From the NCBI RefSeq assembly GCF_963853765.1, contig NC_088853.1, positions 21,142,001 to 21,206,000 of the forward strand: a DNA stretch of 64,000 bases, given 5' to 3'. Position 1 is the first letter of the stretch, and each line of letters starts with the position of its first letter. Below, piece after piece: positions 42,465 through 43,274 of the stretch. The notes under the pieces are model-generated. The model saw only the letters and a list, made by a program, of their open reading frames with translations, made no database searches and was not told the origin of the DNA. The position numbers and the translations under genes are program-made. The DNA comes from Magallana gigas (Eukaryota).

Positions 42465-42636
42465 AACCTGAATTTCAGAATTATCTATGTCATAATTTCT
42501 TGATCACAGAGCATGTATATCCATCATAGGACCAGTAGTCCTGCTATTGTTTTGTTTTTACTTGTTGCATAAAAAAAATAAAAATTGAGACCGTTTGTAT
42601 AAGGTTAGTTCATTTTACATATTTTTCAGATTTACA

Positions 42637-43274
42637 ATGGTAAATACTAAGGTGACCCCCAAGAAGCCTAAAGAGATATATGTCCAGTGTGCTTCAAAGA
42701 AGTTGAAGGGAAAGATGCCTGGACAGCTCACGTTATAAAGTGTGCCGGCAGCATGTTGGTTTGTGAAAAATGTCGTGTGTCCTTTAAGAAAAAGAAATAT
42801 ATGGCAAAACACATGAGATTGAAACATGCAGATATCGATCATTCCAAAGAGTCTGAGAAAGACATTCCAGGTCCTAGCAGCTCACCGACGAATGATACTG
42901 ACAGTGAAAGTGACTGGGATGAAGATCCAGAGGTACGGTTGGAGGAGACTCCAAGAGACGAGGAACCTCAAACTGAAACCAATGACCTGATGGCTGGCCG
43001 TATCTACAGGAAACGCACTAGGCACAGCCCTGTACAGGCTCCCAGAAAATTCATCTGCAGGACGGAAGTGCATCCTCTTCCAGGTGGCGTGACCGTTGAG
43101 ACACAGACAGATACTGTTGTAAGTGGTATGGCAGACAAGAGTACCCAAACTGCTGGATACCGGAAGAGAGTAAAGGAGGTTACCATAACCAAGTATCATG
43201 AGAACGGCAGAAGCGTAGAGAACATTGTGGAGAGAGAGGAGTTTTACAATTTATGTAAGAAAGTTGATTTTTGA
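42637..43274 (+). CDS. Gypsy accessory ORF downstream of pol: two zinc fingers, acidic tract, TQT motifs (2-nt frameshift near 42680)
   Basis: Acceptor-like TTTTTCAG ends at 42629. ATG at 42637 joins the 42687 frame if one TA is removed from GAGATATATGT, giving MVNTKVTPKKPKEICPVC...HVIKC and CEKC...HMRLKH; then ETQT and KSTQT. Confidence 0.65.

Follow-up and report, generated by a model that had tools for sequence, protein, structure and literature searches.

What gene lies between the integrase and the polypurine tract of a Gypsy retrotransposon in the bivalve Magallana gigas, and what does its protein do? The question is posed by an element in a stretch of 64,000 nucleotides (nt) (assembly GCF_963853765.1, contig NC_088853.1, positions 21,142,001 to 21,206,000, forward strand), here called the window. 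A first-pass annotation of this DNA had placed an open reading frame (ORF) at this location, and our analysis bears it out. The element has the order gag-protease-reverse transcriptase (RT)-RNase H-integrase, a pair of long terminal repeats (LTRs), a target-site duplication, a primer-binding site and a polypurine tract, and thus is a Ty3/Gypsy LTR retrotransposon.

An accessory gene downstream of integrase

The gene, which we call ORF2, is a real, conserved, non-env accessory gene under protein-level constraint. It starts with an ATG at 42637, in a different frame from the ORF of the first-pass annotation, and in the window copy the frame is broken near 42670-42680. The annotation had suggested a check of sister elements for an open frame, and all three aligned sisters (L002-L004) have one, of 205 amino acids (aa). 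The open form also occurs in contigs of sequencing runs X1, X3, X4, X6 and X7. The gag-pol region, likewise damaged in the window, is a single 1640-aa frame in two sisters (L031 and L033). What the window holds is the decayed remnant of an accessory gene that is conserved in a lineage of bivalve Gypsy elements. That the product is not an env protein, as had been claimed, holds throughout: the maximum 19-residue hydropathy is at most 1.08 in 19 of 19 family representatives, and there is no transmembrane segment.

The ORF2 protein starts like histone H3

The first 10 codons (42637-42666), which the annotation overlooked, are the main functional clue. After removal of the initiator methionine, the N terminus falls into register with the tail of histone H3. 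Among 30 aligned homologues, K4 and T6 are present in 30 each, T3 in 29, K9 in 21 and R8 in 12; in 17 sequences outside the alignment the counts are K4 17, T6 17, T3 15, R8 12 and K9 10, where the 30 include close relatives and the 17 include relatives of the aligned sequences. Position 1 is a small residue (A, P, V or T), which would permit methionine removal, in 29 of the 30 and in all 17. The K4 of one family, L038, is shifted by a two-residue loss.

Aligned in register, the genome's own H3 (L054) gets 7.8 bits against the family profile; shifted out of register, it gets -15 to -26 bits. Its score was reached by 13 of 270,222 windows of long zinc-finger proteins and by none of 5,977 windows starting with methionine. 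The closest start, MARTKNTARK in L098, matches 9 of the 10 residues of H3 (MARTKQTARK), and that of L078 reads MARTKNTVRK. The H3-like motif is anchored to the start methionine and not to the first finger, whose first cysteine lies at residue 12-22. This arrangement is expected if a free N terminus is read.

Host proteins of the H3TM class are defined by the pattern iM-Z1-R2-X3-K4, in which R2 is required (PMC8166343, excerpt). The ORF2 proteins have the small first residue and K4. Most lack R2, and for this reason they lie outside the class. The ORF2 proteins thus look like H3 mimics of another specificity.

Two zinc fingers and near-invariant motifs

The two fingers described by the annotation, CPVC-x12-H-x3-C and CEKC-x12-H-x4-H, are both in place. 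In the AlphaFold2 model both fingers are folded (predicted local distance difference test, pLDDT, above 90), the middle of the protein is disordered and the C terminus makes a β-hairpin. Finger 2 matches PF00096 in 31 of 31 sequences at an expectation value (E) of up to 1, and all 17 families listed have K or R at both -1 and +6 of its helix. Basic residues at these positions are typical of DNA-binding fingers. By fold and contact residues finger 2 appears to be a classical C2H2 finger, and it would probably bind DNA. Finger 1, of C2HC type, was compared with ubiquitin-binding fingers; it matched the UBZ profile PF18112 in 4 of 15 sequences (best E, 5.8e-5) and the NEMO type at E 0.13, and it aligned with the TAX1BP1 UBZ at Z 4.1 (root-mean-square deviation 5.0, 64 aligned). 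Foldseek gave no structural match at E up to 0.001. VIA-align gave none at Z of 5 or more, with rows that span residues 1-74 and leave out the C-terminal hairpin.

Two further motifs, W-x-DP and R-K-x-T-x-P, are near-invariant among families. The first might be likened to a kinesin-light-chain motif, a weak resemblance because W-[DE] is not conserved; the second might be read either as a kinase/14-3-3 site or as another motif of the H3 K9 kind. The acidic tract of the annotation and its RKRT (43008-43019) are present. The longer RKRTRH is peculiar to the decayed copy and is not a family feature.

An LC8-type motif in the disordered region

The annotation had also read two binding motifs for the dynein light chain LC8, ETQT and KSTQT (43137-43151), and both were found where it put them. 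The second is conserved; the first is restricted to some families. The (K/R)xTQT form proposed as canonical describes the window copy and fails as a family rule, since only 2 of 19 families have it strictly. The conserved form is D-x-x-[TVAC]-Q-T-[DE]. All 18 families compared have QT, at a distance of 32-52 residues from the C terminus, with T at -1 in 13 and D at -4 in 12. The pattern D/E/K/S-x-x-[TVCIAMG]-Q-T-[DEAN], composed after the sequences had been seen, matches 25 of the 30 homologues, close relatives included, versus 3.0% of shuffles; literal TQT is in 16 of the 30 versus 4.9% of shuffles. The flanks of the QT anchor have low pLDDT and form a disordered region. Three families (L012, L029 and L045) have an extra small H-C-x-C-C cluster right before the QT motif.

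For co-folding, we paired LC8 from the same genome (L052) with a segment of the L002 protein, residues 140-205. The score was 0.55 versus 0.19 for the best control; the runs shared at least 82% of contacts, and partner pLDDT was at least 47. Of 78 solved pairs, 51 attain the passing mark, as do 2 of 108 mismatched ones, and scores of up to 0.60 comprise just 5 solved pairs plus all 4 passing mismatches. Because LC8-TQT complexes have already been solved, the pass may reflect memory of them. Co-folding lends the LC8 recruitment proposed in the annotation weak support. Similar in sequence to the QT motifs are two sites of Panoramix, NAATQTE and DAGTQVR, which LC8 uses to dimerise a nuclear silencing complex; as a rule LC8 makes dimers of its clients and does not bridge them (PMC7919418, excerpt). 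Transport, which the annotation had also offered, is the less likely use of LC8.

ORF2 is present in about 19 families

A search of the same genome gave 34 matches among 118 candidates. In the 20 loci fetched around ORF2 matches, RT lies upstream in all 20 and an LTR pair is present in 18, and 7 have a single gag-pol frame of 1640-1729 aa together with an open ORF2. We also picked 40 RT hits by hand across the identity range from 150 scored. ORF2 was present in 21 of these loci and absent from 4 close relatives, and the other 15 were more distant. About 19 families in the genome carry ORF2. Taking 19 loci as family representatives, pairwise identity is 20-61% (median 28%) for ORF2 and 60-87% for RT, and the two distances correlate (rho 0.31, 16 of 3000 permutations). 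Mapped onto a 49-row RT tree, the presence of ORF2 requires 5 changes, and the main group has support of 85/87.

The L078 family falls outside this main group. In three copies (L078, L082 and L120; G000:C5:1617050-1623050 and sisters) ORF2 continues the integrase frame without a stop. This family has the closest match to H3, a C2H2 finger 1, no W-x-DP and no clear splice acceptor. Two other loci (L018 and L019) have internal deletions that join gag-protease in frame to an ORF2 without the H3-like start. By eye, 13 of the 15 more distant elements (L083-L097) bear other 3' ORFs with Cys/His fingers and no H3-like start, and six such elements (L083, L085, L086, L088, L090 and L095) also have TQT-type motifs. 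Judging from these sequences, finger-plus-LC8 accessory genes may be general in the Gypsy lineage.

Annotated database relatives come from Saccostrea, Crassostrea/Magallana, Ostrea, Mizuhopecten and Argopecten. Some bear names of host zinc-finger genes ("BCL11B-like," "REST-like" and "Pegasus-like"), and therefore the ORF2 family is likely being misannotated as host genes. Because multi-finger proteins flooded a profile search against 1.84 billion representatives, the range is established for bivalves alone. The top matches of an Atlas search were unnamed and without taxa. We found no description of ORF2 in the open literature searched, a scope that excludes Repbase, Dfam, subscription journals and supplements. 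The excerpt of PMC6238403 on mollusc Gypsy clades (C-clade, MolGy1-16) mentions neither such an ORF nor zinc, and the excerpt of PMC8557442 names no zinc finger, C2H2 or histone.

The protein is constrained, and the gene is dispensable in cis

In four pairs of families, fourfold-degenerate sites differ by 0.65-0.70, which is saturation, with ORF2 identity at 51-52% and RT identity at 82-83%. With synonymous divergence (dS) saturated, the ratio of nonsynonymous to synonymous divergence (dN/dS) is not computable between families. We looked at codon usage in 18 families, dropping L038, whose start is short of two residues. T3, K4, T6, the RKxTxP residues and QT are encoded by all or most of their synonymous codons, so the constraint acts on the protein. 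Conservation of the Cys/His and QT residues, on which the annotation had staked its proposal, is confirmed.

The L035 family has one ORF2 deletion common to three copies, and in the L070 family ORF2 is missing in 6 of the 9 copies examined. Shared ORF2 deletions have multiplied in these two families, and therefore the gene is not needed in cis. Such dispensability is in keeping with an optional factor that acts in trans, and it speaks against a role in an essential step of replication. The ORF2-less copies L069 and L103-L106 differ from the ORF2-bearing L070 mainly in the LTR (only about 84% identical versus 97-99% for pol).

Splice signals flank gag-pol

The annotation proposed that ORF2 is spliced from an LTR donor. 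Both of its sites are present as sequence: the acceptor TTTTTCAG ending at 42629, and the donor-like GTG/GTGAGG, whose GT (37308-37309) follows the TATA box by about 75 nt. In 18 of 19 families, a count without a control, an acceptor-like pyrimidine tract plus AG precedes the ATG at a distance of 0-17 nt. In the 15 families with a parsed LTR, donor-like sites are enriched below the TATA box: the best donor 60-120 nt below it gave a combined p of 0.0008, with a generic donor matrix and a test interval picked after looking. The resulting first exon is free of ATG in 14 of the 15.

One X1 contig, which we guess to be RNA, enters exactly at the acceptor from a host exon ending GTAAGT (G000:C3:9680231). 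Therefore, the acceptor can work. The host exon (L051:1500-1586, minus strand, near 9.68 Mb of G000:C3) is spliced out of frame with ORF2. The contig suggests an intronic insertion that traps splicing in other individuals; the own-genome search lists no close copy near G000:C3 9.68 Mb. From the placement of these signals, ORF2 is likely made from a short spliced mRNA, with the LTR as the putative source of the donor.

A candidate H3 mimic proposed to act at the element's own DNA

We suggest the following scenario. A short spliced mRNA would give rise to a nuclear ORF2 protein. LC8 would pair two chains, so that the complex would present four fingers and two tails. The fingers would bind the element's own DNA, and the two tails would engage host H3-tail readers or enzymes, so that silencing is countered and the family stays expressed. 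The partner would be a reader or enzyme that needs a free N terminus, T3, K4 and T6, yet tolerates the loss of R2. We give an even chance to this reading, in which the LC8-paired protein acts in trans through H3-tail readers. A wider claim is more tentative, and we would lean against it if pressed: that animal LTR retrotransposons encode a sequence-specific, LC8-dimerised H3-tail mimic that brings or decoys readers of the H3K4 end at their own LTRs, an animal counterpart of the plant transposon protein VANC, with a module perhaps shared with unrelated classes such as Penelope-like elements.

To our knowledge, proteins with which transposons counter their silencing are familiar from plants but have hardly been described in animals. 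ORF2 is a compact candidate for such a factor, and it comes with natural variants: about 19 families, and lineages that kept, lost or fused it. The requirement for T3, K4 and T6 without R2 narrows the host reader that would be targeted.

A number of observations weigh against the preferred reading. H3 R2 occurs in 0 of the 30 aligned sequences and only in the L078 family, and positions 5 and 7 of the tail vary. Whether the tail would activate, act as a decoy or repress is not readable from sequence. Two lineages of three copies each (L071/L107/L108 and L073/L109/L110) lack ORF2 and have kept long open pol frames, so ORF2 is dispensable. Within families, dN/dS is 0.13-0.50 on 8-13 changes, too few to inform. 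The donor test carries the hindsight noted above, and the window's family alone gives p 0.24. The LTR-to-acceptor junction, which the annotation expected, was found in 0 of 8 runs searched out of 24 listed, in a search where contigs cannot show absence and raw runs were sampled at about 1%. Several contigs read straight through the acceptor without splicing, and positions 42695-43124 had no coverage in the roughly 1% of raw run X21 that was sampled. The ORF2 of the L078 family shares its frame with pol and lacks a clear acceptor. Function is read here from sequence.

The same features could serve repression. An unmodified H3-like tail might recruit NuRD- or LSD1-type corepressors to the LTR as a form of copy-number control, and host zinc-finger factors with unmethylated H3-like N termini do bind NuRD (PMC8166343, excerpt). 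The excess of ORF2-less derivatives over intact copies in one family (the 6 of 9 above) looks as if loss were no handicap. However, long retention in about 19 families is more easily explained by a benefit to the element, and the NuRD-binding N termini named in that excerpt have R2, which ORF2 tails lack. We regard a self-repressor as unlikely.

A role in the particle or in integration is somewhat more doubtful. Here LC8 would connect the protein with transport by dynein, or integration would be guided onto chromatin by the tail and fingers, the part that chromodomains play in other Gypsy elements. The LC8-type motifs fit this, as does the integrase-fused ORF2 of the three L078-family copies. 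However, 18 of 19 families have an acceptor and keep ORF2 in a frame of its own, LC8 tends to dimerise its clients and not bridge them (PMC7919418, excerpt), and an internal tail would forfeit the free N terminus, yet the L078-family copies keep the methionine.

Export of genomic RNA seems slightly less probable again. A nuclear protein from a spliced mRNA would bind the element's unspliced RNA through its fingers and gain multivalency from LC8, in the manner of Rev and CERV. In the nematode LTR element Cer1 a spliced mRNA encodes a protein of this type (PMC10309623, abstract), the splice signals here flank gag-pol, and action in trans fits. This leaves the H3-register tail unexplained, and the contact residues of finger 2 are of the DNA type.

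It is quite improbable that the resemblance to H3 is incidental and that the N terminus is no more than a basic arm or a signal for localisation, on an ordinary LC8-dimerised zinc-finger regulator of the sort that the annotation proposed. In favour of this reading, R2 is missing, just three positions are near-invariant, and the likeness was noticed after the fact. Against this stand the exact methionine register, the invariant threonines, the enrichment of R8 and K9, the 9/10 match of L098 and the background of 0 in 5,977. That ORF2 is a nonfunctional captured fragment, passively carried, has next to no chance: the window copy is broken and several lineages lost the gene, but open frames in about 19 families, saturated silent sites and invariant motifs already contradict it.

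Relation to known systems

The host LC8 client ASCIZ/ATMIN, to which the annotation likened ORF2, also has zinc fingers, but more of them and many more LC8 sites. The parallel holds for architecture and nothing beyond; ASCIZ was not among the named database matches of ORF2, in a search not aimed at it and with no ASCIZ sequence compared. VANC proteins of Arabidopsis VANDAL transposons are transposon-encoded, trans-acting, fast-evolving and dispensable in cis, and their anti-silencing activity has been shown. Unlike ORF2, they belong to plant DNA transposons, their sequence is unrelated, and for ORF2 anti-silencing is a proposal.

The H3TM proteins VRK1, BCL11, HIVEP1 and TSHZ1 share with ORF2 an H3-like N terminus with K4 in register, and several are zinc-finger regulators (PMC8166343, excerpt). 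They are host proteins defined by R2, whereas ORF2 is retrotransposon-borne, has mostly K or N at position 2, and has T3 and T6 fixed. The ARSK motif of influenza NS1 likewise has a parasite imitate H3 residues 1-4 to engage chromatin factors (PMC8166343, introduction). That motif is short and C-terminal, and the ORF2 motif is N-terminal, spans H3 residues 1-9 and sits on a zinc-finger protein. CERV of the Caenorhabditis elegans element Cer1 is, like the ORF2 protein as proposed here, a non-env nuclear accessory protein of an LTR retrotransposon, made from a spliced mRNA. Compared by description, CERV exports genomic RNA, and its abstract has no zinc fingers, H3 tail or LC8 motif (PMC10309623). 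Panoramix/SFiNX resembles ORF2 in that its C-terminal region is disordered and carries TQT-type anchors next to what may be a self-association element; these are host proteins, whereas ORF2 has 1-3 sites, two fingers and an H3 tail (PMC7919418, excerpt). Extra ORFs and domains of LTR elements (chromodomain, exonuclease and helicase) are likewise optional coding 3' of pol or fused to it, but the list in the excerpt of PMC6338049 includes no zinc-finger, H3-tail or LC8 protein. Accessory ORFs, histone mimics and LC8 clients are each known kinds.

Other features of the element and the window

The coordinates of the element are collected in Table 1. At the integrase end, an R-R-x-P-x-W-L-x-D-Y motif (42420-42461 in the window) is kept in the pol ends of most related families.

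Table 1. Features of the Gypsy element in the window
Feature	Position	Strand	Remark
5' target-site duplication, ATAT	37108..37111	+	Seen as sequence; second ATAT at 44100-44103
5' LTR (TG...CA)	37112..37680	+	10 mismatches to the 3' LTR across 568 compared bases
TATA box within 5' LTR	37233-37239	+	
Donor-like site, GTG/GTGAGG	37305..37313	+	Putative
Primer-binding site	37686..37703	+	Nearest is the 3' end of a tRNA-Leu(AAG); close but inexact in the window, exact match in related families
gag-pol (gag, CCHC knuckle, protease, RT, RNase H, integrase)	37749..42464	+	Interrupted by stops, frameshifts and deletions
Pyrimidine tract and AG splice acceptor	42615..42629	+	Joined to a host exon in one X1 contig
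ORF2 start, MVNTKVTPKK, like the H3 N-terminal tail	42637..42675	+	T3, K4, T6 and K9 in register after methionine removal; frame break next
Zinc finger 1, C2HC type	42681..42743	+	
Zinc finger 2, C2H2	42762..42827	+	PF00096, E 2.7e-5; basic residues at helix -1 and +6
Acidic tract	42885..42929	+	Ends in conserved W-x(2-4)-[DE]-P
R-K-x-T-x-P motif	43008..43025	+	Pro altered in window copy
First QT site, ETQT	43098..43109	+	Family-restricted
Conserved LC8-type motif, DKSTQTA	43134..43154	+	
Predicted C-terminal β-hairpin and stop	43170..43274	+	Window copy 6 codons longer than sisters
Polypurine tract	43510..43527	+	
3' LTR	43531..44099	+	

Three further mobile-element traces lie elsewhere in the window. 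A frame of 822 codons at 1039-3507 has weak matches to DDE transposase (ISL3/Mutator), an OTU-like protease and a CXC domain, and on these weak hits it may be a DNA transposon with chromatin-type accessory domains. Positions 9951-11048, in the order listed, hold a non-LTR RT fragment. A protease-integrase frame at 62640-63959 belongs to another LTR-type element.
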